Part shown: positions 15,095 to 46,929 of the stretch, piece by piece
Position numbering within the stretch: position 1 is the stretch's first letter
Layout: every line of letters begins with the position of its first letter
DNA from: Elusimicrobiota bacterium
GTDB lineage: Bacteria > Elusimicrobiota > Elusimicrobia > UBA1565 > UBA9628
Length of the DNA: 62,764 nt
Reading direction: 5' to 3'
NCBI GenBank assembly: GCA_013044195.1
Contig: JABEUV010000114.1
Location: forward strand, 1-62,764
Made by a program: the position numbers and the translations under genes
The notes under the pieces: model-generated
What the model was told of the DNA's origin: nothing
Database searches by the model: none
What the model saw: only the letters and a program-made list of their open reading frames with translations

Positions 15095-15245
15095 GCTTGG
15101 AATATAACAGGACGCGGCCGAGCGCGCCAGGGGCAAGTTTCCGGCGTCCTGGGCACAAGAGGCAAATTCGTCTAGGTCCGCAGGACCTGGCGGCGGACGT
15201 CTGGAGAGGGCATACTGTTTCCATGTTGCGCCAGGAGTCATCTCG

Positions 15246-23298: not shown

Positions 23299-23314
23299 CG
23301 GCTCTTTTGTTGCA
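23299..23314 (+). promoter_or_regulatory. Candidate sigma-54 (-24/-12) promoter cGGCTC-ttttg-TTGCA
   Basis: GG at 23300-23301 and GC at 23312-23313 have the canonical spacing. The -12 element is TTGCA. It lies about 48 nt upstream of the ATG at 23362. Chance matches are expected at this stringency. Confidence 0.3.
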
Positions 23315-23909: not shown

Positions 23910-25034
23910 TCAGCGCGGCGAAGCGGGAACGTAGGCGCAGGACGCATCCTCGGCCCAGGCGTCGCCGGTCGTCGCCCACGCGCGCGCGCGCGAGCCGCCG
24001 CAGGATTGGCGGTACTCGCAGACGCCGCATTTCCCGCCCAAGCGCTCGTGGTCGCGCAGGCCCGTGAACAGCGCGTCCTCGCGGTAAAGGCGCGCCAGGC
24101 TGCCGTCGCGCACGTTGCCGCGGACCTCCGGCAGGAAGCCGGAGGGGCAGACGCCGCCCAGGTGATCGACGAACATGAAGCCGTCGCCGGCGTTGACCGC
24201 GCGGTCCGGCAGGCGCAGTCCCGACCGCACGCTGGCGGGCCGCGCGACGGCGCGCTCCACGCGCTCGGCGGCGCCGCTTCCCGCGGCGGCCTCCAGAACC
24301 TTCAGGTAGCGCCGGAAATGCGGCGCCTCGGTGAGCTTGACGACGAATTCCTTCTCCAGCGACAGACGTCGCAGGCGCGCGAAAACAGTTTCGAACTGCT
24401 CCGGCGTCAAGCCGCCCAGGGCCGCGCCGCGGCCCACGGGAATCAGAAAAAACACTTCCCAGAACGCGATCGGCAGGGAGGAGACCAGATCGACGATGCT
24501 CTCGAAAGAGCCGATGTTCCATGCGCCAAGGCAGGTGTTGATCTGCATGGGCAGGCCCAGCTCCCGGCTCCACTCGACGGCCTGCAGCACTCGCGCAAAC
24601 GCGCCCGGCGCGCGACGGAACTCGTCATGGGATCGCGCCGTGTCGCCGTCGAGGCTGAAGGCGACTTGGTCCAGGCCGGCGTCCTTGAGTGAGGCCAGGC
24701 GTTCTCGCGTCAGGTTCGGCGTCGCCGCCGGGATGGTGCCCACGCGCAGCTTCCGGCTTTTGGCGTGCCGCACCAGATCTTCGAGGTCCTCGCGCACGAG
24801 GGGATCTCCGCCGGAGAGGATCAGGATCGGCGTACCCATGTCCGCAACCTGGTCGATCAGCTTGAAGCCCTCGTCGGTGGACAGTTCGCGCGGGTCGCGG
24901 CTCAGGTCGGCGTCGGCGCGGCAGTGGGCGCAGGACAGCGCGCATGAGCGCGTGGTCTCCCAGATGACGAGCAACGGGGCCGACGAGAAATCGAACGGCT
25001 TCGGCGGAAGGACGGCGTCTTTGGGAGCTAGCAC
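23910..25034 (-). CDS. Radical SAM enzyme with C-terminal SPASM-type Cys-rich domain (AhbD/NirJ/PqqE-like)
   Basis: CALSCAHC (Cx3Cx2C) near the N-terminus. The C-terminal part has CPSG...CGVCEYRQSCGGSRARA. GTG start at 25034. Confidence 0.88.
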   Translation of the reverse strand: MLAPKDAVLPPKPFDFSSAPLLVIWETTRSCALSCAHCRADADLSRDPRELSTDEGFKLIDQVADMGTPILILSGGDPLVREDLEDLVRHAKSRKLRVGTIPAATPNLTRERLASLKDAGLDQVAFSLDGDTARSHDEFRRAPGAFARVLQAVEWSRELGLPMQINTCLGAWNIGSFESIVDLVSSLPIAFWEVFFLIPVGRGAALGGLTPEQFETVFARLRRLSLEKEFVVKLTEAPHFRRYLKVLEAAAGSGAAERVERAVARPASVRSGLRLPDRAVNAGDGFMFVDHLGGVCPSGFLPEVRGNVRDGSLARLYREDALFTGLRDHERLGGKCGVCEYRQSCGGSRARAWATTGDAWAEDASCAYVPASPR

Positions 25035-25043
25035 GCTTGTTGT

Positions 25044-25709
25044 TTATGCAACGTTACGGCCGCGGCGCCGCACCGGCCGTGCTTGCGTGGAGGCGCCGAG
25101 ATCTTCCAGCTGAGGGCGAAGGAAAAATTCCGCGCCGAGAGAACGCGCGAGTGCTTCGACCGCGGGGAGGTCGACGTCCGGGCGGTCTACCGCGGTGACG
25201 CGCGTACGCAGTCCGGCCGCCGCGCAGTCCGCGGCGAAGGCGCAGGCCGCGGCGAAGCCCGCCGCGCGGTATTCGGGCCGCGGACGGTGCAAGGTCAGCC
25301 ACTGCGCGGGATCGGCGGTGTTCACGCTGACGGAGACTCGGTCGACTGCGCCGCGCAGGTCCGGGACGATGTCCCGTCCGCAGATCAGTCGGCCCAGCCC
25401 CACCGTGTTGAGGCGCACGGAGATGTCTGGTCGCAGATGTCGGGCGTGCCTTGCGGCGGCGAGCAGAACGTCGAGACGCTGGGTCGGTTCGCCGTAGCCG
25501 CAGAAGACCAGTTCGCGGTAGCTCGTCGTCGGGCCCAGGCGGGCTTCGAGGCCGTCCAGTATCTCGCGCCTCGAAGGTTCGTGGGGCAAAAGCAGATCGC
25601 GCCCGCGGAAGCTCCAATCCCAGCGCGTCTTTACGCAGAAAGAGCAGGCCGTCGGACAACGGTTGGTGATGTTGAGATACAAGCCGCCCTCAAATTCATA
25701 AAACACCAT
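25044..25709 (-). CDS. Small radical SAM protein
   Basis: MVFYEFEGGLYLNITNRCPTACSFCVK (Cx3Cx2C), about 221 aa. ATG at 25709 is preceded by GGAGAAG. The N-terminal extension in the track ORF is discarded. Confidence 0.82.
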   Translation of the reverse strand: MVFYEFEGGLYLNITNRCPTACSFCVKTRWDWSFRGRDLLLPHEPSRREILDGLEARLGPTTSYRELVFCGYGEPTQRLDVLLAAARHARHLRPDISVRLNTVGLGRLICGRDIVPDLRGAVDRVSVSVNTADPAQWLTLHRPRPEYRAAGFAAACAFAADCAAAGLRTRVTAVDRPDVDLPAVEALARSLGAEFFLRPQLEDLGASTQARPVRRRGRNVA

Positions 25710-28123: not shown

Positions 28124-29206
28124 ATGCGACAAGAAATGGGCGTTCGCGCGCAGCAGAAGCTGGCGGTTTTGGGACGCTTGCGCATGGCGGACTGGATTGA
28201 GATGCCGGAGCGCGAGTTCGCGCGCGAGATCGAGCGCGTCGAAAAGGACCCGCTGTTCCGGCGCCTTCACTACGGCGCGGACGGACTGCCGTCCGCCATC
28301 CGGCGGCGGCGCTGGCCCGGCGGCCGGCTGTCCTCAAGCTTCTACGGAGTCGATGAGTCCCGCATCGGCGCGGGCCAGCGCGTGGACGTGGAGGGCAGTC
28401 TCGACGCGCGCCGCGACGTCCTGCCGCTGATCCGTCGCATGGGCCGCGCCTCTTTCGAGCGCTACTTCCTGCACGGCGACGAGCCCGCGACCTTGCCTGA
28501 GATCGCGAAGCGCACGGGTCTCAGCGAAAGCGAGGTCGCGCGCGTCAACGATCTGCTTCTGGAGATCGGCGCGCAAGCCGAGTTCGCCGGCGCTCCGCGC
28601 GTCGCTCCGACCCAGCCCGGCGCGGCGTGCCTGGCGCGGCTCGCGCTTGAGGGGGACAAGATCGTCTTTGAATTCGCCTCGCCGTATTGGGCGCGCGGGC
28701 TCTATCAGGTTCGCTACGACGACATCGAGTCTTGGAAGTCCTCCGGCAACCTGACCGGGCCGGAGCGGCGGCGCTTGCGCCACCTGCTCAAGCGTTTGGA
28801 AACGTTGAACCTGCGCCAGAGCACGATCTTCCGCATACTCGAGTCGTTCTCGGCGATCCAGGCCGATTTCCTGCGCAGCCGCGACCCCGCCGACCTGCGT
28901 CCGGTCAGCCTGCGCCTTCTGGCCCGCCGCCTGGACCTGGCGCCGAGCACCGTCAGCCGCGCTCTGGCGCGGCGCACGCTGCGCCTGCCTTGGGGTCCGG
29001 AGGTGCCGATGATTTCTTTCGTGCCGGGGCAGCGCCGGGTTCTCAAGGAACTGCTTTCCGGATGGCTGCGCGAGAATCCCGATAAAACCGACGCGGACTT
29101 CGCGCGGCGCTTCAAGGTGGAGCGCGGCATCGACATCTCGCGGCGCACGGTCAATGCGGTGCGCCATGCGCTGACGCGCGAGTCGGGGGTGCTTTCTGAA
29201 TCCTGA
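28124..29206 (+). CDS. rpoN: Compact sigma-54 family factor (RpoN-like, 360 aa)
   Basis: Region I-like N-terminus MRQEMGVRAQQKLAVLGRLRM...EKDPLF, core-binding-like LETLNLRQSTIFRILESFSAIQADFL, HTH LDLAPSTVSRALARR, and an RpoN-box-like ISRRTVNAVRHAL. Much shorter than typical RpoN of about 480 aa. Confidence 0.75.
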   Translation: MRQEMGVRAQQKLAVLGRLRMADWIEMPEREFAREIERVEKDPLFRRLHYGADGLPSAIRRRRWPGGRLSSSFYGVDESRIGAGQRVDVEGSLDARRDVLPLIRRMGRASFERYFLHGDEPATLPEIAKRTGLSESEVARVNDLLLEIGAQAEFAGAPRVAPTQPGAACLARLALEGDKIVFEFASPYWARGLYQVRYDDIESWKSSGNLTGPERRRLRHLLKRLETLNLRQSTIFRILESFSAIQADFLRSRDPADLRPVSLRLLARRLDLAPSTVSRALARRTLRLPWGPEVPMISFVPGQRRVLKELLSGWLRENPDKTDADFARRFKVERGIDISRRTVNAVRHALTRESGVLSES

Positions 29207-30250: not shown

Positions 30251-31657
30251 TTAGAAGCCGACTTCGAACTGCACCGACACGCGGTCGCCCAGCGGCGCCA
30301 GCGTCGCGCTGTTGGCGGCCAGCGTCGGCTGGTAGAGCACCGTGCTGTTTTGGTAGTCCCGCTTCGTGTCCACCGAGTACTCGATGAAGCCCTTGAGGTT
30401 GGGCGTGAAGTAGTGCGCCAACTGGGCCGTCACGTAGTTGAACTGTTGCGTACCGTTGTAGGTCGTCAGCCAGTTCTCGCGCACCAGCGGCACCAGGAAC
30501 GGCGTGTCTTCTCCGTGGCGCTTGTAGTAGTAGGCAAGCTCCGCGTAGGCGGCCTTGTTGGTGTCGTTGAGCTGATAGACGCTGTCGTAGTCGTGGCTGT
30601 ACAGGAAGGCCCCGCGCGCGGCGAAGCCGTTGTACTCCCACAGCGCGTCGAAGCCGCCGCGCTGGAACTGTTCAAGCTCCGTTCCGTTGCCCACGCCTCC
30701 GGGCAGGAAATTGCCGCCCAGGCCGCCGGCGGCGGTGGGGCGCTCCTGGCCGTAGGAACCGAAGGTTCCGATCATGATGCCGTTGCCGTTGTCGAGCGCC
30801 AGGCGGATGTTGCCGTTGGTCGGTGCGCTGCCCTGAACGCCGGTGTTGCTGTCCTTTGAGGCGCCGGCGGCATAATACAGGAACGAATCGCCGCGCAGGT
30901 TGACCTGGCCGTTGACGCCCACCAACTGCTGCATGGTCAGCATCGTGTTGCCGCTGATGGATCCCTGCCCTTGCATCAGCAGGTCGGTGGCGCGGTTGGC
31001 GATGGTCGGCGTCTCATTGGAGACGATGGTCTGATACGGATCGTCGGCGAAGAAGTTTCGCCGCGCCATGATGACGTTCATCCACTGGAACGGGTGCCAG
31101 CCCAGCCGGATGTCGCCCATGCCCGGAGTAAAGCCGCCCGGCGCGTTGGCGTCGAGCTCGCCCAGGTAGGAGATGTGGCGCGCCACGTCGCCGCCGGCGA
31201 TGAAGGCGTCCACGTCGTTGATCGGCTGGGACTGGAAGCCGTTCGGGTTCGGACCCGCCGTGCCGCCCATCTGAGCGCCTTGGCTGGACATGTTGCCGTG
31301 GCCGTTATCGATGGGCCGCGCGCGCACGATCACCGCCCACGGCGTCATGGCCTCGGTCCACAGGCTGCCGTCCTGGCTCTTGAGCACGCCGTCGCTGCCG
31401 TCGCGCTCGCGCACGAAGCCGTTCATCTTGAACTGGCGGCCGTAGGCGTTGAGCACGGGGTAGCCGGCGTGGCACTGGGAACAGGACATCTTGTACTTGC
31501 GGGCGAACGAAGGCAGGGCTTCGGCCTGATCGACGCCGTCGGGCCGGACGGGGCAACGATGCATCAGACGGCTGATCGCGGGCGGAGCGATCCAGGCGGC
31601 GGCCAGGGCGGCGGCGACAAGCGCGCCCCGGGCGGCGCTGTGACGATTTAGACTCAT
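30251..31657 (-). CDS. Outer-membrane beta-barrel (porin-like) protein with an N-terminal CxxCH motif
   Basis: ATG at 31657 follows AAAGGAG. Signal peptide, then KMSCSQCHAGYPVLNAYGRQFKMNGF near the mature N-terminus. Alternating beta-strand pattern, ending ...VSVQFEVGF. Confidence 0.72.
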   Translation of the reverse strand: MSLNRHSAARGALVAAALAAAWIAPPAISRLMHRCPVRPDGVDQAEALPSFARKYKMSCSQCHAGYPVLNAYGRQFKMNGFVRERDGSDGVLKSQDGSLWTEAMTPWAVIVRARPIDNGHGNMSSQGAQMGGTAGPNPNGFQSQPINDVDAFIAGGDVARHISYLGELDANAPGGFTPGMGDIRLGWHPFQWMNVIMARRNFFADDPYQTIVSNETPTIANRATDLLMQGQGSISGNTMLTMQQLVGVNGQVNLRGDSFLYYAAGASKDSNTGVQGSAPTNGNIRLALDNGNGIMIGTFGSYGQERPTAAGGLGGNFLPGGVGNGTELEQFQRGGFDALWEYNGFAARGAFLYSHDYDSVYQLNDTNKAAYAELAYYYKRHGEDTPFLVPLVRENWLTTYNGTQQFNYVTAQLAHYFTPNLKGFIEYSVDTKRDYQNSTVLYQPTLAANSATLAPLGDRVSVQFEVGF

Positions 31658-31879
31658 GAATGATCTCCTTTGGATACGGGCTTGCCGCCGCATACGGCGA
31701 GCGGTCGACTATCGTTACGCAACGATTCGTCCGAACAAGGGTTTTTTAAGGTGCATCGCGCAGGAATTATGCAAATTTTTCTATTCTTGAGCGGCGGATT
31801 TTTTCGCGGAAGGCGCTGAAGCGCAAGGTCGTCTTCGGATGGACCGCGGCGACGCGGCGGCGCATGATGTCTCCGGCGT

Positions 31880-33019
31880 TTATGGAAATTCCTTCGCGAC
31901 GGCCCTGGGAAGAAGGACGGAGAAGCGGCTGCCTTCGCCCGGCGTCGACTCGACGCGGATGTCTCCGTTCATCGCGGACAGGGCGCGGCGGCAGAAAGCC
32001 AAGCCCAAGCCCGTGCCCTTCGTTCGTCCTTGCCGGCGCGCCTGCGCCTGGTGGTAGCGGTCGAAGAGAAGCGGAAGCTCTTCTTCGGGGATTCCGGGAC
32101 CATTGTCCGTCACATGGAAAAGAATGACGTCCGGCGACGCCGCGTCCAGAGAAAGCTCCACGCGGCCTCCTTCCGGCGTATACTTTATGGCGTTGTCGAG
32201 AAGATTCTGTAGAATCCGCTCCAAGAGGGATTCGTCGGCCAGCACGCGCGCGGGGTCCGTCGCGCGCACGGTCAGCGACACGCCGCGCGAGCGCGCCAGC
32301 GGCTCCTGGTCCGCCGCGCAGCGCGCGGCGACCTCCGCGCCGTCGAGTTCCCGCGCCTCGACCGGCATCAGTCCCGCGTCGAGCTTGGCGACGTCCAGGT
32401 AAAGGTCGAGGAGTTCGGCCATGCGGCGGCAGTTCGCCACGCCGATGCGCAGGTTCTCGGCGTCGAGCGTCACCGGCGCGCCGCCCTGCGCGTCGTCCTG
32501 GAGGGACGCCAGCACGGCTTGGATGCTCGTCAGCGGATTGCGCAGGTCGTGGGCGAGCATGTGGCGCCAATCCGCGCGCTCCGTCTCCAGGCGCTCCTGG
32601 GCCGTGGCGTCCTCGATGATGGTCAGCCGCTTGCCCGGATGCGCGCGGTCAAGCCAAGCCGTCGCGGTCTTCAGGCAGCGCACGCGCAGGCTTTTGCGCT
32701 CATCGACCCGGGAGATCGCGTCGTCGCGCCACGCGAAGAACGGCTTGGCGCCGTAGCGGCCTTGGAAGGTCGCCGCCGTCGCGGAGCTCCCGGCCTTCTT
32801 CAGCGCGCAGGCGCGAGCGCAGTCGTCTCCGTCCGGGCACGTCAGGCGCGCGCAGAGAAGGTCGCAGAGGGACGCCTCGCCGATTTGATCGAGACCGAAG
32901 CCTAAAAGACGCTCGGCGGGCGGGTTGAGATAAAGGATGCGGCCGTTGTCGTCGGACAGGCAGATGCCGTCGGTGAGCTGATCAAATAGAGGCAACAGCG
33001 CCGCGGCGTTTTCACTCAC
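31880..33019 (-). CDS. PAS-domain sensor histidine kinase with a Cys-rich PAS region
   Basis: PAS domain (DDNGRILYLNPPAERLLG) containing CDLLCARLTCPDGDDCARAC. H-box LAHDLRNPL and an HATPase domain. Confidence 0.9.
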   Translation of the reverse strand: MSENAAALLPLFDQLTDGICLSDDNGRILYLNPPAERLLGFGLDQIGEASLCDLLCARLTCPDGDDCARACALKKAGSSATAATFQGRYGAKPFFAWRDDAISRVDERKSLRVRCLKTATAWLDRAHPGKRLTIIEDATAQERLETERADWRHMLAHDLRNPLTSIQAVLASLQDDAQGGAPVTLDAENLRIGVANCRRMAELLDLYLDVAKLDAGLMPVEARELDGAEVAARCAADQEPLARSRGVSLTVRATDPARVLADESLLERILQNLLDNAIKYTPEGGRVELSLDAASPDVILFHVTDNGPGIPEEELPLLFDRYHQAQARRQGRTKGTGLGLAFCRRALSAMNGDIRVESTPGEGSRFSVLLPRAVAKEFP

Positions 33020-33842
33020 GGCCGCCTCCCGAAGCCGCGGCGGGAATGGCGAGTACCGGAATCGGAGAGAAGCGCGCCAGGCGTTCGGCCGTGGTTCCCA
33101 GGACCATGTCGCCGAGCAGCGATTTGGGGCGGGCGAGAAGAACCATTAAATCACGACCGCGCGTAGCCCTTAAAATCGTCGGGACGGGCCGGCCGAGCTT
33201 GACCTCGGCCGTCGGATGAGTGTCGCGGCGCACGTTCTTCGGCAGGCGGCGCAGACGAGCGGAAAGCAGGCGTTCCGGATTCGTGCCGAAGATGGGATCC
33301 TCGATGACGTGGAGGACGTCGAGCCGGGCCTTGAACGCGCGCGCGACAAGCCCCGCGGCGAGCAATCCGCGCGCGGCGTCGCGGTCCTCGGCGATGGGCG
33401 CCAGCACGCGCCGGGGCGGGCGGAAGTTTTTACGCACCACGAGCACGGGCGCCGGGGACTCGCGGATGACCGACTCCGCGACCGAACCGAGTAACGCGCG
33501 CAGGAGCCCGCGCCGTCCGTGCGTGCCCACGACGACGAGGTCCGCTCCGCGCCGGCGCGCGACGCGCGCAATCAGCGTCGCGGGCTCGCCGTAGCCCGCG
33601 TGCAGCGGCAGGTCGCCGGTCACGCGCAAGCGCAGGTTTCGGACGGTGCGTCGCAGGTTTTCGCGGTCTTCCGCGTAGGGTCCGTAGGCGAAGAGCTCCG
33701 CGGTGAGAGGGGCCTCGCAGTAGACGGCTTCCAGCGACGCATGGCAACGACGCGCCAGCAACTTGGCCGCGCGCAACGCGCGCGCGGAGGCGTCGGAGAA
33801 ATCGACGGCGACGAGGATGCGGCGAGGTGGAAAGCGCAACAT
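33012..33842 (-). CDS. Tandem universal stress protein (two UspA domains)
   Basis: RILVAVDFSDAS..., DLVVVGTHGRRGL...GSVAES, and a second Usp repeat. Overlaps the downstream kinase gene by 8 nt. Confidence 0.9.
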   Translation of the reverse strand: MLRFPPRRILVAVDFSDASARALRAAKLLARRCHASLEAVYCEAPLTAELFAYGPYAEDRENLRRTVRNLRLRVTGDLPLHAGYGEPATLIARVARRRGADLVVVGTHGRRGLLRALLGSVAESVIRESPAPVLVVRKNFRPPRRVLAPIAEDRDAARGLLAAGLVARAFKARLDVLHVIEDPIFGTNPERLLSARLRRLPKNVRRDTHPTAEVKLGRPVPTILRATRGRDLMVLLARPKSLLGDMVLGTTAERLARFSPIPVLAIPAAASGGGRE

Positions 33843-33898
33843 AACCCTCCTCCGGACGGCATTGATTGTGAATGCAATGAAAATGCCAATTATAACTC

Positions 33899-33947: not shown

Positions 33948-34358
33948 ATGGCGACTCACGTCGGGGCGGACGGACGCACGGAGGTGCGCGCGCGGCTGAT
34001 CCGGCTGGTTGCGCTTTTGGGCCGCGCCGAAGGCGTGGGCTGGGACGACCAGACGCGGGTGGATGTGCGCAGCCTGTGCGCCCGGGAGCGGCGTCTGCGC
34101 GAGGCCTTGCGCCGCCACGGCAAAAAAGACGGCGCCCTGGCGCGGACGCTGGCGTCCCGCGGCGACTTGGAGGACGCCGGCACCTTGGACCGCCAACGCG
34201 AGTCGATCGAAAACGAGGCGCGTTTGTTGGGCGCGCTGACCGGTCTCTGCGACGGCCGCCACGTGTATGCGGTGCGCGGCGTCGTCTCCAGGCTCGCCGA
34301 GGACGTGCAGAAGCATCTGGAATTCCACGAGAATCTGCAGTCGCGGGGGGCTTTATGA
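33948..34358 (+). CDS. Hypothetical protein (136 aa)
   Basis: The ATG at 33948 is preceded by GGAGG. The stop overlaps the next start (ATGA). No family recognised. Confidence 0.5.
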   Translation: MATHVGADGRTEVRARLIRLVALLGRAEGVGWDDQTRVDVRSLCARERRLREALRRHGKKDGALARTLASRGDLEDAGTLDRQRESIENEARLLGALTGLCDGRHVYAVRGVVSRLAEDVQKHLEFHENLQSRGAL

Positions 34359-34873
34359 GCGTGATCGCGGCGCTGGCGCACGAGCATCGCGTATTTTTAC
34401 GCATGATCGACCGCATCGAGCGGACGTTGTCCCGCACGGAGGCGGAGGGGCGCGCGTACGCCCGCGTCGACCTGCTGGTCTTTCTGACGGCGTTGGAGCG
34501 CCACGAGGAGATCGAGGCGGAGGCTTTCGCCGATCCTCCGGACTCGTCCGACGAGGGGACGTCTCAGGCCGCCGCGGAGTCGAGCCGCGAGCACGCCGAA
34601 ATCGACGTCCTGCGCGACGAGATCCGCGGCATGCTGGAGGAGTCCTCCGGTTCGTGGGAGCATTTTTCTTCGCGCGCGCGGGAACTGACCGCGCGGCTGA
34701 GGCGTCACTTCGAAATCGAGGAGCAGAATATCTGGCCGCGCTACGCGCACGCCGCCGGCCGTTCCCGGGCGCGGGCGCTCGCGCGGCGCGTCGACGAGCG
34801 GGTGAAACGGCTGGAGCGCGAACTGGAGCTGGAGCGCGAGGATGCCGTGGATTATCTCGACGGCCGGCGTTGA
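34355..34873 (+). CDS. Hemerythrin-like (HHE cation-binding) domain protein
   Basis: Spaced His/Glu motifs: AHEHRVF, ERHEEIEAE, REHAEID, RRHFEIEEQNIWP. Confidence 0.75.
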   Translation: MSVIAALAHEHRVFLRMIDRIERTLSRTEAEGRAYARVDLLVFLTALERHEEIEAEAFADPPDSSDEGTSQAAAESSREHAEIDVLRDEIRGMLEESSGSWEHFSSRARELTARLRRHFEIEEQNIWPRYAHAAGRSRARALARRVDERVKRLERELELEREDAVDYLDGRR

Positions 34874-35334: not shown

Positions 35335-35661
35335 CTACGCGAACTGATCGTCGCGCCGCACGACGAACTCGTGCGGCTCCGCGCTGACCGCGAAGCCTTC
35401 GGCGGTGACGAAGCGGGCGACGGCCTCGTGCTCGCCTTCGTCGTAGCCCGACCAGTCGAACCACCAGTAGCCGACGGCCGGGCGGCACGGCCGCCAATCG
35501 CCTTGGTCGACGGCGATCTCGACGGAGCGGGCGCTCTCGGGGGCGCTGATGCGGAACGTGTAGGTCATGCCGACGATCGTCTGGTATTGGCGCGGAAAGT
35601 CGACCGACAACTGGGTGCGCGCGGACGGCGGGGCGGTCTTCTCAAGCGTCGCGGTGGTCAT
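35335..35661 (-). CDS. Small Ig-like/E-set (CBM48-like) domain protein
   Basis: YTFRISAPESARSVEIAVDQGDWRPC resembles the N-terminal E-set/glycogen-binding modules of GH13 enzymes. 108 aa. Confidence 0.45.
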   Translation of the reverse strand: MTTATLEKTAPPSARTQLSVDFPRQYQTIVGMTYTFRISAPESARSVEIAVDQGDWRPCRPAVGYWWFDWSGYDEGEHEAVARFVTAEGFAVSAEPHEFVVRRDDQFA

Positions 35662-35786
35662 GGCGTGCCCTCCCTATGAGCCCGGCCTAAGTCGTTCATG
35701 GAGGTTGCAACGCCTCGGCCGCGCGCGCTCCGGACGCCGCGGTGCGTGTGATTCGATCGACGTCGTTTTGCTAGATTGGAGCCGCT

Positions 35787-40562: not shown

Positions 40563-40578
40563 AGGCCGAATCGTTGCT
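40563..40578 (+). promoter_or_regulatory. Candidate sigma-54 promoter aGGCCG-aatcg-TTGCT
   Basis: GG at 40564-40565 and GC at 40576-40577. It lies 26 nt upstream of the ATG at 40603, so the leader would be very short. Confidence 0.25.
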
Positions 40579-40602: not shown

Positions 40603-41070
40603 ATGCGTTTGTTGAGTGGTCCTATTCCGGATAATAAAATCCGGATTACCGGCCTGTCGACGACGGTGCGCCACGCGCTTCAGGCGCTGGCGGGGATGCG
40701 AGTGCGGGCCCAGCGTGCCGGCGACGTCGCGCGGCGCCGCGGCCTGCCGGAGGCCGCGCTGTCCAAGATATTCCAGCGTCTGGCCAAGTTCGGCCTTCTG
40801 GAATCTCGGCGCGGTCCCGGCGGCGGCTACCGGTTGGCGCGTTCGCCCGCGGAGACCAGTCTGGCGGCCGTCGCCGACGCGTTGGAGCCGTCGGACCGGC
40901 GGCACGGGCGCTGCCTGATCGAGGATCGACCGTGCGGCGGCGGCGCCGTCTGCGCGCTGCACGAGGCCGGCGTCGCTGCGGAGGCGCAACTGCGTGGGGC
41001 GATGTCGTCGTTGACCCTCGCCGATCTGGCGCCGCGCCGACGCGTGGCCGCCGGCCGGGCGGCGAAATAA
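40603..41070 (+). CDS. Rrf2-family transcriptional regulator (NsrR/IscR-like, three clustered Cys)
   Basis: HTH LSKIFQRLAKFGLLESRRGPGGGYRLAR. Cys ligand spacing is C..x6..C..x5..C (RCLIEDRPCGGGAVCALH). The ATG at 40603 follows AGGTGAGGA. Confidence 0.9.
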   Translation: MRLLSGPIPDNKIRITGLSTTVRHALQALAGMRVRAQRAGDVARRRGLPEAALSKIFQRLAKFGLLESRRGPGGGYRLARSPAETSLAAVADALEPSDRRHGRCLIEDRPCGGGAVCALHEAGVAAEAQLRGAMSSLTLADLAPRRRVAAGRAAK

Positions 41071-41071
41071 C

Positions 41072-41551
41072 ATGTCCTGGGCCGACGCGACGGTTCACTG
41101 GCTGCACCTGACCGCGGCGATCCTCTGGGTCGGCGGGACGTTGTTCACGTCTTTGGTCGTGCATCCGGTCCTGAGCGAGAAGCTTTCCGTTGGAGAGCGC
41201 TCGGCCGTTTACGAGGCGTTGGGGCGGCGGCTCAACGCCGTGCAGTGGGGGACCTGGGCGGTTCTGCTGGCGACGGGCCTTTGGAAATTGTGGGGACTGC
41301 GCGCGACGCCCGACGTTTTTCTGGGGCCGTTCGGCCGCATTTTGGCCGTCAAGTTGACGCTCGTGGCGCTGATGGTCGCGCTGAGCCTGATCCACTCGTT
41401 GTCCTGGGGGCCGGCGCTCACACGCGGCAACCTGACGCCCCCGGCGCGCGCGGCGCTGGCCCGTCGCGCCGCTTTCTGGGGAAAAATCAACGCGCTGGTG
41501 ATGCTCGCCATCGTGTTCTGCGCCGCTTTGCTGAGGTATAACCCATGGTAA
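41072..41551 (+). CDS. CopD-like 4-TM membrane protein
   Basis: HWLHLTAAILWVGGTLF motif, four hydrophobic helices, 159 aa. Confidence 0.65.
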   Translation: MSWADATVHWLHLTAAILWVGGTLFTSLVVHPVLSEKLSVGERSAVYEALGRRLNAVQWGTWAVLLATGLWKLWGLRATPDVFLGPFGRILAVKLTLVALMVALSLIHSLSWGPALTRGNLTPPARAALARRAAFWGKINALVMLAIVFCAALLRYNPW

Positions 41552-41757
41552 ATGAAAAAGAAGAGCCGACTTTGGAACTGACCGTGCTGGAGACGCTGGA
41601 GCGCTGGCCCGCCGCGCGCGCGGTGCTGGTCGCGCGCGGGCTGGACCTGTGCTGCGGCGGCGTGCATCCGGTAGGAATGGCGGCGCGCGCGCACGGCGTG
41701 GACCCCGAGGCGCTTCTCGCGGAGCTGCGCTCGGCCGCGAGCGACGGTCGCGTGTGA
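41545..41757 (+). CDS. Stand-alone ScdA_N / DUF542-like domain (N-terminal domain of YtfE/DnrN-type iron-centre repair proteins)
   Basis: 70 aa with DLCCGG (compare DYCCGG of YtfE) followed by AARAHGVDPEALLAEL. Overlaps both neighbours. Confidence 0.72.
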   Translation: MVNEKEEPTLELTVLETLERWPAARAVLVARGLDLCCGGVHPVGMAARAHGVDPEALLAELRSAASDGRV

Positions 41758-43091
41758 ACGGCGAGGCGCCTAAGCCGGCGGCGTTCCGGGGCAGCGGGCC
41801 TTTTCTGCGTACCGCGCCGCCTCTGTGGCTGCCTCTACGCCACTTCGCGCTGGCGTCCGCGGCGCTGCTGGTCTTCGCGGGCGGTGTCGCCTGGCGCGGA
41901 GGGGATTTGGTCGGTTTTGATTTCAACGCGCGCTTCGCGCTGGGGCTGGTGCACGTCTTGACGCTGGGCTGGGTCGCGCAAACCATTCTAGGAGCTTGGT
42001 GCCAGATGCTGCCGACGCACGGGGAGACGCCGCTGGCGTTTCCGCGGATCGCGACGGCCGGCTGGTGGCTCTTCGCGCTGGGTGCGGCGGCGTATGTCGG
42101 CGCGCTGTGGGGCGGAATTGAGCGCTATTGGGTCCCGGTGTCGGCCGCCGCGGCCGGGCTGGCGCTGGAGCTTTTCGCGCTGGCCGCCACGCACGCGCGC
42201 GCGCGAAAGCGCGATGAGACGTGGCTTCATTTTGCCGCGGCGCTGGGTTGGCTGGCCGCGCTGGCGACGGCCGGCGTGCTGCTGGCCTACGACCGCGAGC
42301 GCGGGCTGCTGTTTGGCGACCCGGAGGGCGCGTTGATCGCGCACGTGCACATGGCGCTGATCGGCTTCGTGGCGACGGCGATCTACGGCGCGGGCCGCCG
42401 CCTGATTCCGTGGGTCGCGCTGAGCCAGGTCCGCGGGCGCTGGGCGGGACGCGCGAGCTTCGCTTTGACGCAGTTGGGTCTGGCGGGGCTCGCGCTTGAT
42501 GCCTTGTTCTTCGGCCGTCGGCTGATGCCGCTCTGGGCGCTCCTGATCGCGGCGGGCTTCGTTTTGTATGCGCTCCAACTGGGACCGCTGTTTGGCGGCG
42601 GCGCGTCGTTTGAGCCGTCCTTGGCGTTGACCTTGCTGTCGTTTGCCGGCGGCGTCTTATGGGCGGCGCTCGGCCTGGGGCTGGCGTTCGGACGCTTCGC
42701 CGACGCGGCGCCGGCGCGCGCGGCCTACGTCTGGGCGGCGCTCGTCGGCTGCGTGACGCCGATGATCCTGGCCCAGGTCCACAAGATCGCGCCGTTTTTG
42801 GTCTGGCTGCACGTCTACAGCCCGCGCGATTGGACGCCGCCGGTCAAGGTTCCCAAGATCGACGATCTGACCAGCCGCGGCTTGGCGTGGGCGGAGTTCT
42901 TCGCGCTGGCCGTCGCAGCACCCCTGGGAACGGCGGGTTTATGGTTGGAGCGCGGCGGGCTGGTGCGGGCGGCCGGCTTCTGCCTATCCGCGGCGGCCGC
43001 GGGCTACGCCTGGAATCTCGGTCTAGCTCTGCGGCACGTCGTGCGCCCCGACGGGCGCTGGACGCTGCCGACGGTTCACGCGGGAGAATAA
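41754..43091 (+). CDS. 12-TM histidine-rich integral membrane protein, paralog A (possibly NnrS-like; family unassigned)
   Basis: The GTG at 41754 overlaps the upstream stop (GTGTGA). About 12 hydrophobic helices. Conserved LGLVHVLTLGW, ALIAHVHMALIGF, QVHKIAPFLVWLH. By eye, roughly 45-50% identical to the ORF at 43825-45135. Confidence 0.8.
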   Translation: MNGEAPKPAAFRGSGPFLRTAPPLWLPLRHFALASAALLVFAGGVAWRGGDLVGFDFNARFALGLVHVLTLGWVAQTILGAWCQMLPTHGETPLAFPRIATAGWWLFALGAAAYVGALWGGIERYWVPVSAAAAGLALELFALAATHARARKRDETWLHFAAALGWLAALATAGVLLAYDRERGLLFGDPEGALIAHVHMALIGFVATAIYGAGRRLIPWVALSQVRGRWAGRASFALTQLGLAGLALDALFFGRRLMPLWALLIAAGFVLYALQLGPLFGGGASFEPSLALTLLSFAGGVLWAALGLGLAFGRFADAAPARAAYVWAALVGCVTPMILAQVHKIAPFLVWLHVYSPRDWTPPVKVPKIDDLTSRGLAWAEFFALAVAAPLGTAGLWLERGGLVRAAGFCLSAAAAGYAWNLGLALRHVVRPDGRWTLPTVHAGE

Positions 43092-43112
43092 AGTCCCAAA
43101 GGAGAAATCGCA

Positions 43113-43556
43113 ATGGCTGACGAAATGATTTCGGATTTTTTTAAAAAGGATCACGACGAGATCGACGCGCTGCTGGCGGCCGTCGATTTCGATCGGCCCA
43201 AGGAAGCCCTGCCGATTCTCGCGGAGTTCGACCGGAGGCTGGAGCGGCACATCGTCTGGGAAGAGGAGATCCTGTTTCCGACGGCGGCGCGCCTGGCGCC
43301 CCCGTTGGCGCACGGGCCCATCGCCGTCATGCTTGAAGAGCACATACTCATCCGCAAGGACAAGCGGGACGCCCTTGAGCGGCTTGCCGCGGGAGACGGA
43401 GCCGGCGCGAAACGTTCCACCGCCGCGATGCTGGAGGTTCTGGGCGGGCACAACATGAAGGAAGAGCAGATTCTCTATCCGACGTGCGACCGCGTCCTGG
43501 CCGGCGCGCAAGCGGCGCGGGTGATGGACGTCATCCGCGAAAAGAGCCGCGGCTAG
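43113..43556 (+). CDS. Hemerythrin-domain protein
   Basis: DFFKKDHDEID, LERHIVWEEEILFP, MLEEHILI, GGHNMKEEQILYP. This is a classic HHE pattern. Confidence 0.85.
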   Translation: MADEMISDFFKKDHDEIDALLAAVDFDRPKEALPILAEFDRRLERHIVWEEEILFPTAARLAPPLAHGPIAVMLEEHILIRKDKRDALERLAAGDGAGAKRSTAAMLEVLGGHNMKEEQILYPTCDRVLAGAQAARVMDVIREKSRG

Positions 43557-43852
43557 GGCATCAGCCGACGGCGTCCTTCCGCGGAGAGCATCGCCGGAGA
43601 CCAGGGCGGGTCCCAGTCGAGCGTGATGGAGACGGCGCGGTTTCCGGCGACGTCGTCGAGCGCGTCCTGCGCCATCTGGATGATCGTGGGGCCCAGCGGG
43701 CAGCCTTGCGACGTGAGCGTCAGGCGCACGTCCACGCTTGCCGGAGTCACCTCCAGTCCATACAGGAGGCCCATCGTCACCACGTCGAGTCCCACTTCGG
43801 GGTCGATCACCGAACCCAAGGCGGTCAGCGCGGCGCGCTTGTCTTTGTCCAT
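43553..43852 (-). CDS. DUF59 / SufT-like metal-sulfur cluster assembly domain protein
   Basis: MDKDKRAALTALGSVIDPEVGLDVVTMGLLYG...TSQGCPLG. The ATG at 43852 overlaps the upstream gene end by 28 nt. Confidence 0.78.
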   Translation of the reverse strand: MDKDKRAALTALGSVIDPEVGLDVVTMGLLYGLEVTPASVDVRLTLTSQGCPLGPTIIQMAQDALDDVAGNRAVSITLDWDPPWSPAMLSAEGRRRLMP

Positions 43853-45135
43853 GCTCCCTCCCGAATGAGAAACGATAGGCTCAGTCCCGTGTTGACGGCG
43901 TAAAGTGTGGCGGTCGCCAGGAGGAACAAGGATCCCGCGCGCAGCAGCGTCTGTGATCCCATCAGGAAGCCCGCGGTCCCGAGCGCGACGGCGGGGACCA
44001 TGGCGAAAAATTCCACCCAGGCAAGCCTTTCGCTGGCCAACTCCGTCATCTTGGGAGGAGGGCTCTTCGCAGTCCAGGGGCGGCTGCCGAACAGGTGCAG
44101 CCAGACGAGGAAAGGCACGATCTTGTGGACCTGCCCCAGAATGAACGGCGTGGCCCAGCCCACGAGGGCGGCGTAAATATAAGCGGCCAGGATGTTGGCG
44201 TCGTCGCGCAGAAACCCGAACGCAAGCCCGACGCCGAGCAAGACCCAGACCGCGCCGCCGGTCAAGGCGAGGAGCGTGTAGGCGAGGGCCGGGTCGATGC
44301 GCCGGTTGCGCGCGGAAAAAATTCGCCGCATCTGCCAGGCGTAGGCTGCGTAGGCCGCCGCGAGCAGGCACGCCCAGAGGGGCAGCAGCCGGCGGCCGAA
44401 GAATAGACCGTCCGCCGTCAACCCGGCGAGGCCCGCGAGCGTCAGGACCAGCGCAAGCCTCCCCGGCGTCTTGGAGTCCACGTGCGCGAGCGCGAACATC
44501 GCGACCAGTCGGTACGACACGCCGACGATCGTCAGCGACACCCAGCCCACGAGGGCCAGATGAACGTGCGCGATCAGCGCGCCGTGCGGATCATGAAAGA
44601 GTATGCCGCGTTCGCGGTCCCAGGCCAGCATCAACCCCAGCGCGATCACCGCGGCGAGGAGCGAAATCGAGACGGCGAGGTGGCGCGCCGTCCAGTCCAG
44701 ACGGGGGGCCAGGATCATCGTGCGCGCAAAGCAGGCGAGATAGACTCCGACGGACCCGACGAGCAGGACCGCCGCAATCCAATAGCGGCTTCCGCCCAGC
44801 CACAGCTCCCCGACGAAGCCAGAGAGCCCCAGGATGAAGGCCCACCATGCCCAACGTGCGGCCTCCGGCCAAGCCAGAGGCGTTTCCCAGAGCACGGCCG
44901 AAAGCTGGCAGATCGCCCCGAAGATCGTCATCGTGATCCAGCCCAACGTCAGGACGTGAACCAGGCCGAGGACCCATTCGGCCCGGAAGCCGAAGTCCAG
45001 GAAGCGGTCCGTTCCCCACGCGAACGCGGCCGCGAAAATCCAGAAGGCGACGGCCGCGGCGGCGAAGTGCCGCATCGGCAGGTCGATCGGCGGGGATTTG
45101 GCGAGATTGAGGGGCGGGGCGGACGCCGTGCTCAT
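43825..45135 (-). CDS. 12-TM histidine-rich integral membrane protein, paralog B
   Basis: 436 aa with the same motifs as paralog A (LGLVHVLTLGW identical; ALIAHVHLALVGW; QVHKIVPFLVWLH). The start overlaps the upstream stop (ATGA). Confidence 0.8.
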   Translation of the reverse strand: MSTASAPPLNLAKSPPIDLPMRHFAAAAVAFWIFAAAFAWGTDRFLDFGFRAEWVLGLVHVLTLGWITMTIFGAICQLSAVLWETPLAWPEAARWAWWAFILGLSGFVGELWLGGSRYWIAAVLLVGSVGVYLACFARTMILAPRLDWTARHLAVSISLLAAVIALGLMLAWDRERGILFHDPHGALIAHVHLALVGWVSLTIVGVSYRLVAMFALAHVDSKTPGRLALVLTLAGLAGLTADGLFFGRRLLPLWACLLAAAYAAYAWQMRRIFSARNRRIDPALAYTLLALTGGAVWVLLGVGLAFGFLRDDANILAAYIYAALVGWATPFILGQVHKIVPFLVWLHLFGSRPWTAKSPPPKMTELASERLAWVEFFAMVPAVALGTAGFLMGSQTLLRAGSLFLLATATLYAVNTGLSLSFLIREGAWTKTSAPR

Positions 45136-45371
45136 CGCGATTTCCGGATCGTCAGGCGATAGCGGTTCTCGGCGAGCTTGATGATCTCGTGCGCGAAGCC
45201 CGCCGCGTCCAGGTGCGCATACAGCGGCACGGGTTCCCGGAAATGCTCCACGACGAGACGGTCCTCGGGTCCCAGCGCCGTCACCGCTTCAAGAATGCGG
45301 ACCATCGGCTCCGGCGGCTCGAGGTCGCTTACGTCGAGGTTCACCGTTTTTCCTTCGCTCGGCTTATCCAT
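45132..45371 (-). CDS. DUF2249-like (TusA-fold-like) small protein
   Basis: 79 aa: LDVSDLEPPEPMVRILEAVTALGPEDRLVVEHFREPVPLY. There is no Shine-Dalgarno sequence before the ATG at 45371. Confidence 0.72.
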   Translation of the reverse strand: MDKPSEGKTVNLDVSDLEPPEPMVRILEAVTALGPEDRLVVEHFREPVPLYAHLDAAGFAHEIIKLAENRYRLTIRKSR

Positions 45372-45405
45372 GAGCTTAGAGTAGCACTCGTCGCCGGTGG
45401 GGAAC

Positions 45406-45419
45406 CTGCGCCGGCGCAG
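45406..45419 (-). promoter_or_regulatory. FNR/NnrR-type palindrome CTGCG-ccgg-CGCAG centred 41.5 nt upstream of the ATG at 45371, with -10-like TACTCT at 45383-45378
   Basis: The 14-mer is part of a perfect 20-nt palindrome (45403-45422). It matches TTGCG-N4-CGCAA at 8 of 10 positions. If +1 is the A of the ATG, the centre is at -41.5 and TACTCT occupies -12 to -7. Confidence 0.5.
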
Positions 45420-45435
45420 GTTTTTTAAGCGGCCG

Positions 45436-46143
45436 TCAGCCGGCGCCGTCGCGCAGCGCCGCGGGCTTGAGTATTTTGATGCGCTTCCAGCGCGCGTCGA
45501 TGAGGCCCGCCTCGCGCAGCCGTCCGAGGACTCGGATCGCCGTCTCCACGGTGGTGCCGGCCATCTCGGCCACCTCCTCGCGGCCCAGGCGCAGTTCCGG
45601 ACCAAGAGAGAGCGACAGCATCCAGAGGATGTAGCCGATGCGGCGCTCGGCGGGCTCCTTGACCATGGAGCGCAATGCCTGGGAGTGGCGCAGGTGATCG
45701 CCGACCTCGGCGTAGACGGCCTGCGAGAACGGCGGATGGCGGCGCAGCAGTTCGTCGAAGTCCGCCGTGCGGATGCGGTAGACCTCGCTGTCTTGAAGGC
45801 ACACGGCGTTCACGGGGTAAGGCCGCTTGTCGAGAGCGGGCATCATCCCGAAGAGACGCCCGGGAACGATGATCTCGAGAATCACCGGATCGTCCTTCGG
45901 CGACAGCTTCACCGCCTTGATCAGCCCCGAGCGCAGCAGGTACGCCGCGTCCGCCGCCGCGCCCTCCGAGAAGATCGTCTCTCCCCGGGGGTGGCGGCGC
46001 AGGACGAACGCCCGAGAAACGCGCTCCAGGTCCGCGGACGCAAGGCCTTTCAGGAAGGGGATTTTGGCGAGAAAAGAATCCACGAGTTCGATGATATCAA
46101 TTCCCTTCCGGGCTAAGGACCTGAGCGCCTTCCGACGAGACAA
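45436..46143 (-). CDS. Crp/Fnr-family transcriptional regulator
   Basis: cNMP-binding-like beta-roll (RGETIFSEGAAADAAYLLRSGLIK) and a C-terminal HTH (REEVAEMAGTTVETAIRVLGRL). No N-terminal Cys cluster is seen, so it looks Dnr/NnrR-like rather than FNR proper. Confidence 0.9.
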   Translation of the reverse strand: MSRRKALRSLARKGIDIIELVDSFLAKIPFLKGLASADLERVSRAFVLRRHPRGETIFSEGAAADAAYLLRSGLIKAVKLSPKDDPVILEIIVPGRLFGMMPALDKRPYPVNAVCLQDSEVYRIRTADFDELLRRHPPFSQAVYAEVGDHLRHSQALRSMVKEPAERRIGYILWMLSLSLGPELRLGREEVAEMAGTTVETAIRVLGRLREAGLIDARWKRIKILKPAALRDGAG

Positions 46144-46177
46144 GCCGGCGGAAGGCGCCCAGGCGAGCTATTCCTCG

Positions 46178-46735
46178 TCAGTGTCCGTGACCGCCGCAGC
46201 CGCAGCCGCCGGAGCGAGCGGCCTTCTTGTGGAAATAGACCTTCCAGTCGTCCTCGGCGAGGCGTTCCGCCCAGGCCTCGAAGCCTTTGCCGCCCAGCAG
46301 TTGATACAGCGGGCGCGGCTCGAAAATCGCGCGCAATACGAATACGCCGCCCTCCGCGGTCTGCGTCGCCGCGGCCATGATCTTGGGGAAAGGTTCCAAG
46401 CCCGCGCGCAGATCTTCACGAACGTCGACGACATTCGCCGAGTCGGGCTTGGCCCATGCCGGACGCGCCGTTTCGGCGCCCGGGGCCGCCGCGCCCGAGC
46501 CCGCCGCCACGCGCTTGATCAGCACGGACCACTGCTCCGGACCCTTCTCGACGGCCGTCCACTCGAACTCGCCCGCGCGCTCGGCGCTGAACTCGTAGAA
46601 AAGCGGCTTAGGATCATGGTCGTTGACGAGCTTGAGCGCTTTCCCGACGGGGAGCTCTTCCCAGGCCTTGAAAATCTTCGGGTGCCTCTCGCGCGGCGGC
46701 ATCGATCTCACGTCGACCAGCACTTCTTGCTCCAT
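46178..46735 (-). CDS. Double DUF2249-like protein with C-terminal Cys/His tail
   Basis: First half: RHPKIFKAWEELPVGKALKLVNDHDPKPLFYEF. The second half resembles the 45132-45371 product. It ends ...SGGCGCGGHGH. Confidence 0.78.
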   Translation of the reverse strand: MEQEVLVDVRSMPPRERHPKIFKAWEELPVGKALKLVNDHDPKPLFYEFSAERAGEFEWTAVEKGPEQWSVLIKRVAAGSGAAAPGAETARPAWAKPDSANVVDVREDLRAGLEPFPKIMAAATQTAEGGVFVLRAIFEPRPLYQLLGGKGFEAWAERLAEDDWKVYFHKKAARSGGCGCGGHGH

Positions 46736-46929
46736 GTCGTCCTCCTCGCGGCGAATGCGCCGCTGGTCAAAGGCTAGCAGGGAACCGGCCGATCAAATAT
46801 GCGCTGGCGTAGGATTTAACGACGCCGCCGTTGCGCGCGCGCGGCGCCGCGGGTGCCGCGACCGGTTCAGCCTCCATTCTTAACGCGACAATATCCGTCC
46901 TGACCATCTCGGCCGCGACGTTCGAGCGT

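Follow-up and report, generated by a model that had tools for sequence, protein, structure and literature searches.

Contig JABEUV010000114.1 of an Elusimicrobiota bacterium (GenBank assembly GCA_013044195.1), whose whole analysed stretch of 62,764 nucleotides we call the window (G+C 62–72%), carries at positions 40603-46735 ten open reading frames (ORFs) arranged as two converging arms, each of which holds one of two related membrane proteins with 12 transmembrane (TM) segments that we designated A and B. An earlier note, made from the sequence alone, had listed the ten ORFs, their domains and the pair of paralogous membrane proteins; ORF calling with Pfam and NCBIfam scans found all ten in place with the expected domains. 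Over an alignment of 421 residues A and B are 48% identical (E = 6e-105), and judged from this similarity they are paralogues, two diverged copies of one module at this locus.

The plus-strand arm is headed by an Rrf2-family regulator (40603-41070; PF02082, 8e-24; rrf2_super, 74 bits) with three cysteines spaced as C-x6-C-x5-C, a motif of the Fe-S type (HGRCLIEDRPCGGGAVC). In its fold and its three cysteines this protein is like NsrR, but it scored 22.8 bits against the NsrR equivalog NF008240 (cut-off 182) and no NsrR-like operator was identified upstream of the arm, so that of the NsrR-type assignment made earlier the Rrf2 family and the cysteines stand and the NsrR type is unproven. Downstream lie a CopD-like 4-TM membrane protein with an HxxH in TM1 (41072-41551; PF05425, 4.6e-9, plus DUF4149 and DUF2214), a stand-alone ScdA_N/DUF1858-type domain of 70 residues with a CCGG motif (41545-41757; PF04405, 2.2e-9), protein A (41754-43091; 445 residues from a GTG start, the family member P0087) and a hemerythrin-like di-iron domain protein (43113-43556; PF01814, 3.8e-16), with junctions of +1, -7, -4 and +21 nucleotides. 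The ScdA_N/DUF1858 type is the N-domain of RIC/YtfE and also of the Thermus protein DrpB, to which we return below. The window ScdA_N protein weakly matched the N-terminal regions of RIC, YtfE and ScdA in NCBIfam, and the hemerythrin-like protein matched the YtfE, RIC and DnrN models below threshold. The two therefore resemble the two halves of a RIC protein of the RIC/YtfE/ScdA/DnrN kind, but they are separate genes with a 12-TM gene between them, and the RIC/YtfE/DnrN equivalog was not reached (TIGR03652, 29 and 32 bits against a cut-off of 204.7).

The minus-strand arm begins with a two-domain DUF2249 protein of 185 residues (46178-46735; two DUF2249 domains, 1.1e-42), made of a DrpA-type domain (PPRERHP, NDHDP), a domain of the DrpB-middle type and a Cys/His tail, GGCGCGGHGH. 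This tail (46178-46210) resembles the GCECCCGSDH end of a DrpA-type DUF2249 protein of Sinorhizobium meliloti (L090 5278-5556; fetched loci are cited by such numbers), and Cys/His-rich tails on DrpA-type DUF2249 proteins suggest a metal-binding appendage. It is followed by a Crp/Fnr-family regulator of 235 residues (45436-46143; cNMP_binding, 7.5e-21; HTH_Crp_2, 8.6e-14) with the recognition helix VETAIRVL; the fold is that of NnrR and Dnr without the N-terminal Cys cluster of FNR, no NCBIfam equivalog score was reached, those of NnrR and Dnr included, and since the protein has a single cysteine it is not an FNR-type Fe-S sensor. A single DUF2249 protein of 79 residues comes next (45132-45371; PF10006, 3.4e-16; TusA, 4.6e-5), of the EPPEPM type (TusA-like, as in the DrpB C-terminus), and then protein B (43825-45135) and a DUF59 protein (FeS_assembly_P, SufT-like) with a conserved CP motif (43553-43852; PF01883, 1e-15), whose ORF overlaps the stop of B by 28 nucleotides.

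From the DUF59 gene outwards the minus-arm junctions are -28, -4, +64 and +34 nucleotides, and the arms converge with a 4-nucleotide overlap and no intergenic spacer. The claim that almost every junction is an overlap or a gap under 25 nucleotides thus holds overall, with the +64 and +34 gaps, which flank the Crp/Fnr gene, as its two exceptions. The locus had also been described as bracketed by Rrf2 and Crp/Fnr regulators; Rrf2 does head the plus arm, but Crp/Fnr stands second in the minus arm and is not an outer bracket. A terminator-like hairpin with a T-run (43550-43567, minus strand) lies at the DUF59 stop, within the 3' end of the convergent hemerythrin gene, and sigma-70 and terminator consensus scans added nothing beyond it.

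Fold and conserved residues of the 12-TM proteins

A search with B identified 212 relatives, nearly all annotated as hypothetical proteins and many with a precomputed match to COX1 (PF00115), close homologues among them coming from Elusimicrobia metagenome-assembled genomes (88% identity). B itself scored 15.5 bits against COX1 (gathering cut-off 34.8) and A gave no match, while in an alignment of 29 family members 19 matched (best 3e-20), some distant members passing the gathering threshold. The AlphaFold2 model of B (predicted local distance difference test score 92.7, predicted template-modelling score 0.92) has twelve long helices, and a Foldseek search with it returned the cbb3 oxidase subunit CcoN (3mk7) as the best match (TM-score 0.73), followed by NorB and by subunit I of ba3, aa3 and bo3 oxidases, all of them with probability 1.0 at 11–15% identity; TM-scores to CcoN and NorB were 0.62–0.74. 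Supporting this, the 29-member profile run against PDB sequences found the cbb3 CcoN chains (E = 3e-8), with TM1-3 of the family (GLVHVLTLGW) on CcoN helices IX-XI (GHVHAGALGW); a phmmer search of PDB sequences with the distant member P0117 gave no match, and only the family profile reached CcoN. As modelled, the 12-TM proteins have the fold of the subunit I of haem-copper oxidases (HCO) and nitric oxide (NO) reductases, a superfamily membership that the earlier note had not recognised.

H60 (TM2) and H190 (TM6) are invariant in 252/252 family representatives, and among the same sequences Q77 is conserved at 98%, K338 at 96%, W345 at 99%, H192 at 80%, H337 at 45% and H347 at 60%. In the profile alignment (E = 3e-8) H60 falls on the second His of the HxH of CcoN helix X, a low-spin haem ligand, and the first His of that motif, the high-spin haem ligand, is a Leu in the 12-TM family. 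A weak hhalign match (probability 19.5%) to the cbb3-like CcoN of locus L027 sets TM5-10 on helices I-VI, and in it H190 falls on the helix II His, which is the other low-spin haem ligand, and the CuB His position is an Ala. For four of the six HCO His ligands, namely the high-spin haem His and the three CuB/FeB His, no conserved counterpart was present in the 252 representatives, and no HH pair was present in the helix equivalent to VII; nor did we find a redox partner subunit (CoxB, CcoO or NorC) in the locus. By these alignments the two invariant His are retained and the ligands of the binuclear centre (high-spin haem and CuB/FeB) are lost. Considered as a whole, the results suggest a subunit-I fold whose three 4-helix units are circularly permuted relative to HCO, with the low-spin haem site kept and the binuclear centre absent. 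The window proteins are thus like CcoN and NorB in overall fold, in the homology of TM1-3 to helices IX-XI and in having counterparts of both low-spin haem ligands, but differ from them in having neither the binuclear-centre His nor a subunit II, CcoO or NorC partner. We infer that the 12-TM protein is probably neither a respiratory oxidase nor an NO reductase.

NnrS, a haem- and copper-containing 12-TM protein of the NnrR, NsrR and NorR regulons, was the characterized family that the earlier note had weighed as an identity for A and B. Canonical NnrS (PF05940) was ruled out, in that one of the 29 aligned members matched (E = 0.38) and A and B did not; neither of the two matched any NCBIfam model. 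There is a likeness in the 12 TM segments, the distant HCO relationship and the NO-responsive regulons, and an analogous protective role of the 12-TM module is plausible; the family differs from NnrS in its conserved residues and its dedicated DUF2249 and DUF59 partners, and the two coexist in rhizobial denitrification islands.

The conserved neighbourhood and Thermus drpAB

An exhaustive profile search found 1,243 clusters (at 50% identity) of the 12-TM family at E ≤ 1e-30 and 4,642 at E ≤ 1e-3. A survey in which a single genome represented each GTDB species gave at least 451 stretches with a gene for a 12-TM relative; carriers belong to the Elusimicrobiota, Ignavibacteriota/Bacteroidota, Gemmatimonadota, Verrucomicrobiota, Planctomycetota, Methylomirabilota, Rokubacteria, Myxococcota and other phyla, and further to the Deinococcota and Alphaproteobacteria, and include the cultured Rosettibacter primus. 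Widespread as the family is, and found beside nosZ, nor, nir and nar genes, it has as yet no dedicated model in Pfam or NCBIfam.

To count neighbours we predicted the ORFs of 79 fetched loci and ran jackhmmer over them, seeded with sequences of the window and of annotated loci; the range is 4 kb from the 12-TM gene unless another is given. DUF2249 was present in 77/79 loci (directly upstream in 61) and DUF59 in 72/79 (directly downstream in 64). An ScdA_N/DUF1858 domain occurred in 52 of the 79, mostly fused to two DUF2249 domains as in the DrpB architecture, a Crp/Fnr gene in 46, a 4-TM protein homologous to a single HCO unit in 35, a small ferredoxin in 21 and, within 7 kb, nosZ in 15. Anywhere in the fetched locus, hemerythrin was found in 13/79 (12 within 4 kb) and Rrf2 in 11/79 (6 within 4 kb). 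Precomputed Pfam look-ups of the neighbours gave the same picture, and in some loci genes for qNOR, a NorB-like protein or a COX1/COX2-like pair adjoin the module. Several partners are naturally fused to the membrane protein: P0152, P0195 and P0240 are 12-TM proteins with a C-terminal DUF59, and P0263 joins 12-TM, DUF2249 and ScdA_N. The gene arrangement is far from chance, because homologues in 79 independent genomes are surrounded by these gene sets as well, and the module, conserved across phyla, is a coherent system linked to NO and denitrification. Both its coherence and this link had been proposed in the earlier note; the outcome that the note had named as refuting it, a match to a characterised family and a neighbourhood confined to this genome, did not occur, and the link is borne out by nosZ and nor neighbours, an NnrR-like operator (see below) and the Fe-S-type Rrf2 regulator.

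Orthology assignment separated the two paralogues, B being the widespread type with its context of Crp/Fnr, DUF2249 and DUF59, and A belonging to a clade specific to Elusimicrobia with orthologues in L001, L020, L022 and L024. Relatives of A (those four and, more distant, L004 and L021) have Rrf2, CopD-like and ScdA_N genes alongside and lie in or beside nos clusters without DUF59, e.g., after nosL in L004 and before an Rrf2-cytochrome c-nosZ run in L001 and L020. A CopD-like gene also stands beside the module in L001, L023, L078, L082, L086 and L087. One relative, P0122 (862 residues), has two full-length matches to the 12-TM profile and is thus a tandem double 12-TM protein; this echoes the paired paralogues of the window and hints that 12-TM proteins may act as dimers.

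The only components of the module with published genetics are in Thermus thermophilus, where drpA (DUF2249) and drpB (DUF1858 plus two DUF2249) lie downstream of the nar operon (PMC6282519). Loss of either DrpA or DrpB raised expression of DnrS, DnrT and nitrate reductase, and loss of both altered regulation so that the promoters became nitrate-independent, while nitrate reductase was made at normal levels and was poorly active (PMC6282519). DrpB was membrane-bound without a TM segment or known anchor, and the study treats drpAB as a bicistronic unit (PMC6282519). A tblastn search of plasmids with a DrpB-like protein from a module locus matched Thermus DrpB at 37–39% identity over 94% of its length, and loci L002, L006 and L069 encode the full DUF1858-2xDUF2249 chain at the same 37–39% identity; a profile search with DrpB-like proteins had no Thermus entry among the best 120 of its 1,804 matches. 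On plasmid pTTJL1801 of T. thermophilus JL-18 the order is narGHJI, the major facilitator superfamily (MFS) transporter gene narK, drpA (72 residues) and drpB (273 residues), after which (L088 7798-10584) come a 144-residue protein, a protoglobin-domain protein, a 383-residue protein and a protein annotated as 'metal-sulfur cluster assembly factor'. We found the 144-residue protein to be a 4-TM single-unit HCO homologue (COX1, 4e-5), the 383-residue protein to be a 12-TM family member that keeps H60, H190 and K338 (hhalign probability 99.9%, E = 3e-34), and the assembly factor to be DUF59. From this gene order and the family matches downstream of drpB, drpAB are judged to be the first genes of the same conserved 12-TM/DUF59 module.

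The window locus contains all of the DrpB domain types, that is, DUF1858/ScdA_N and two types of DUF2249, and the first 76 residues of the window 185-residue protein (46508-46735) share 54% identity with DrpA, the PPRERHP and NDHDP motifs included. It differs in that the domains which form one chain in Thermus DrpB are split among three polypeptides in both arms, a Crp/Fnr gene stands between them and no nar operon is nearby.

Rhizobial plasmids carry the module near nnrR, nirK, nnrS and nosR. A Mesorhizobium plasmid encodes a 12-TM protein (probability 99.8%), 2xDUF2249, DUF59, DUF1858, Crp/Fnr, pseudoazurin and NnrS, with NosR further on, and in Sinorhizobium meliloti RCAM1750 the plasmid-borne module lies beside nirK and a Crp/Fnr regulator gene, then pseudoazurin. 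In the latter the 12-TM gene, between two DUF2249 genes (L090 5605-6964), is unannotated and split over two frames, either because it is a pseudogene with a frameshift or because of an error in sequencing. A literature search found no mention of the locus tags of the S. meliloti module. Expression of a DUF1858 gene adjoining nnrR depends strongly on NnrR in Bradyrhizobium (PMC6710368), and denitrifying conditions induce all four of the DUF2249 genes of Haloferax (PMC11218638).

Proteins of this kind have already been described computationally. Pei, Li, Kinch and Grishin in 2014 reportedly defined three-unit HCO-homology proteins with 12 TM segments, two conserved His and one predicted haem, and are said to have noted a genomic link to denitrification and NO genes and to DUF2249, with 4-TM single-unit homologues nearby. 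By this description, the window proteins share the three homologous 4-helix units and the two conserved His, and the window locus is a duplicated, mirror-arranged, lineage-specific variant. Beyond that description we add the Elusimicrobia paralogue split, and what appears to be new is the placing of drpAB in one module with 12-TM and DUF59, the neighbourhood counts, the DUF59 and DUF2249 fusions, the ligand mapping and the layout of an NnrR-like box and a sigma-54 promoter. The system had earlier been called not functionally described; this is not wholly so, given the HCO-homology proteins and their DUF2249 association, which have been attributed to Pei et al. 2014 (PMC11218638), and DrpA and DrpB, for which genetics exist (PMC6282519), but it does hold for the 12-TM family, which is experimentally uncharacterised. 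A full-text literature search on HCO-homology proteins returned no relevant experimental paper.

Operator boxes and promoter-like elements

Between the Crp/Fnr stop and the start of the single DUF2249 gene we found a perfect 20-bp palindrome, AACCTGCGCCGGCGCAGGTT (45403-45422), whose core CTGCG-N4-CGCAG makes it an NnrR-like Crp/Fnr box and which is the only perfect match in the window. The NnrR consensus is ctTTGcgnnnncgCAAag, TTGCG-N4-CGCAA (PMC1274295), from which the core departs by one base per half-site, matching 4/5 positions. An extended -10-like element, TGCTACTCT (45378-45386, minus strand), follows 19 nucleotides after the palindrome, whose centre would lie ~41.5 nucleotides upstream of the start of transcription that this element implies; this promoter geometry suggests that the real start codon of the single DUF2249 gene may be the GTG at 45344. 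Upstream of the first minus-arm gene (46771-46817, minus strand) there is a degenerate copy of the box (46794-46817) and then TGCTAGCCT (46771-46779). For the degenerate box 0.05 matches would be expected in the window and one is present, and it is kept 5' of the orthologous genes in L010, L012 and L014. The combination of box, 19-nucleotide spacing and TGnTAnnCT element precedes module genes in L010 (three copies), L012, L015, L016 and L023. Exact TGCG-N4-CGCA matches number 21 in 1.1 Mb of loci, and 11 of these lie ≤160 nucleotides upstream of module genes. The classical FNR/DNR box TTGA-N6-TCAA occurs twice in the window, both times away from the promoters of the locus. A further TGCG-N4-CGCA box, CTGCGGAGGCGCAA (40977-40988), is inside the end of the Rrf2 gene, ~90 nucleotides before the CopD-like start, and could be an internal Crp/Fnr site joining both arms or a product of chance.

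The plus arm is preceded, 25 nucleotides before the Rrf2 ATG, by GGCCGAATCGTTGCT (40564-40578, plus strand), an element like a sigma-54-type (-24/-12) promoter with GG-N10-GC. A GG-N10-GC/TTGCW element precedes the Rrf2 genes of five related loci, among them L001 (two sites), L004, L014 and L020, and the loci in which it is conserved include Rrf2-cytochrome c-nosZ operons. Five of the sigma-54-type matches in the window are directly 5' of genes in the right orientation. GGC-N7-TTGCW sites were noted at 23300-23314(+), 25047-25061(-), 33873-33887(-), 35706-35720(-) and 40564-40578(+), the genes behind them being those for a cytochrome c (23362-23796), a radical SAM protein (23910-25034), a Usp protein (33012-33842), an ORF at 35335-35661 and the Rrf2 arm. 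The cytochrome c-like protein at 23362-23796 is homologous to the product of the gene between Rrf2 and nosZ in L001, L004, L014 and L020, while the window has no nosZ. A Sigma54_DBD domain is present in the 360-residue product of the ORF at 28124-29206; the window yielded no enhancer-binding protein for sigma-54.

Possible functions of the module

We tentatively read the 12-TM module as serving NO-linked protection, repair or maturation of metal centres in N-oxide respiration, a reading to which we give a probability of roughly 40%. In such a system the 12-TM protein would hold one bis-His b-haem near the outer membrane face and would have DrpA/DrpB-type DUF2249, ScdA_N/DUF1858, DUF59 and hemerythrin as partners at the cytoplasmic face, and the gene fusions together with the near-universal adjacency argue for physical contact between it and these soluble proteins. 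The haem protein would respond in the membrane to NO, or to a redox state created by NO, and with its partners would protect, repair or mature iron and other metal centres, in a role like that of NnrS plus RIC/YtfE. The minus arm is predicted to form two transcription units with an NnrR-like box ahead of each, and the arm's own Crp/Fnr protein probably binds both boxes, which would give positive autoregulation; the plus arm would be read from a sigma-54-type promoter, with an Fe-S-type Rrf2 regulator as its first gene. We favour protection, repair or maturation because of all partners DUF59 is the most constant and in some proteins is fused, because RIC-type domains and ferredoxin recur, because the Thermus double DrpA/DrpB mutants make an inactive nitrate reductase and because NnrS sets a precedent.

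Several points weigh against this interpretation. The window is devoid of nir, nor and nos genes, and neither the Rrf2 nor the Crp/Fnr protein reaches an NsrR, NnrR or Dnr equivalog score. Haem binding by the 12-TM protein is deduced from two conserved His and homology; one of the two alignments behind the ligand equivalence is the weak one (probability 19.5%), and as the three 4-helix units are mutually homologous the register is ambiguous, Pfam pairing TM6 with helix X. The sigma-54 motif has 11 matches in the window against 6.0 expected, which is not a significant enrichment. The Thermus authors read DrpA and DrpB as nitrate sensors and not as repair factors, and DrpA was reported to be periplasmic, a poor fit with a partner at the cytoplasmic face (PMC6282519).

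Another explanation, which we consider doubtful though far from fanciful, makes the module a sensor-transducer in which the haem protein would sense NO, O2 or a nitrate-dependent redox state and would alter how DrpA/DrpB-type DUF2249 proteins are bound or sequestered, and these would then control the adjacent Crp/Fnr (DnrT/NnrR-like) activator, through a phosphorylation-independent partner switch at the membrane with DUF59 and hemerythrin as auxiliaries. It would account for the regulatory phenotypes of the Thermus mutants (PMC6282519) and for the single haem site kept without a catalytic site, and it would give the membrane-bound DrpB, which lacks an anchor of its own, a possible one in the 12-TM member encoded downstream of drpB. 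A protoglobin, which is a sensor-type globin, lies inside the Thermus module, and Crp/Fnr is within 4 kb in 46/79 loci. DUF59, however, is linked more universally than the regulator (72 against 46 of the 79) and is fused to 12-TM proteins, and its biology is metal-cluster assembly, not signalling. A regulator gene beside its target operon is common and is no proof that the products of the operon signal to it, and the double mutants are also defective in nitrate reductase activity at normal protein levels.

The same inactive nitrate reductase could result from failed cofactor delivery, with the 12-TM and CopD-like proteins moving or inserting haem, iron or copper for denitrification enzymes of the periplasm or membrane such as NosZ, Nor and Nar and with DUF59 and DUF2249 as cytoplasmic metallochaperones. 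The plus-arm clade lies in or beside nos clusters (L004, L001, L020), a CopD-like partner is present, the DrpA-type DUF2249 proteins have their Cys/His-rich tails, and DUF59 is a family tied to metal-cluster assembly (SUF_assoc and SufT models). We think this explanation unlikely nonetheless, as the HCO fold has no known transport members and 64/79 loci have no nosZ within 7 kb; it overlaps in part with repair or maturation of metal centres, from which it is computationally inseparable. Given the homology of the 12-TM protein to NorB and oxidases, one may also ask whether it is a cryptic enzyme that, by itself or together with the 4-TM homologue and soluble partners that bind metal, transforms NO or another N-oxide and feeds an adjacent nitrous oxide (N2O) reductase. 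NosZ genes near 15/79 loci, the small ferredoxin in 21/79, a third His (H192) at 80% and the conserved Q77 and K338, which could line a site or channel, would suit such an enzyme. It is very unlikely because the binuclear-centre ligands are missing (nothing conserved corresponds to the high-spin haem ligand or to any of the three CuB/FeB ligands) and canonical NO reductase genes coexist with it: qNOR or NorB genes are beside the module in several loci, and in rhizobia it shares its context with NnrS and norCB. We regard as similarly improbable a complex of the 12-TM protein, the 4-TM homologue, DrpA/DrpB-type partners, DUF59 and ferredoxin that transforms or scavenges NO, by non-canonical reduction of NO to N2O or by sequestration; if it did exist, it would supply the adjacent clade-II-type N2O reductase in organisms often without a classical NO reductase and would be a new functional branch of the HCO superfamily.

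If the module does protect, repair or mature metal centres, it would belong to the accessory factors that control N2O and NO turnover by non-classical denitrifiers, a turnover that is ecologically important and whose controlling factors are poorly known. Thermus DrpA and DrpB, the only genetically studied components, are now tied to a conserved membrane partner and DUF59, neither of which the original study considered, and the 12-TM protein is a candidate for the membrane anchor of DrpB. An oxidase fold apparently reduced to its low-spin haem site also bears on the evolution of the HCO superfamily.

Elsewhere in the window, three long minus-strand ORFs at 3508-6228, 13199-15241 and 30251-31693 encode proteins of 906, 680 and 480 residues; their third-position G+C of 0.82–0.90 marks them strongly as coding, and they match no Pfam family at E ≤ 1e-3 or 1e-4. 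A second hemerythrin-domain protein (34358-34870; PF01814, 8e-13) has its gene in the vicinity of those for Usp proteins and PAS histidine kinases, 6 kb upstream of the ten-gene locus.

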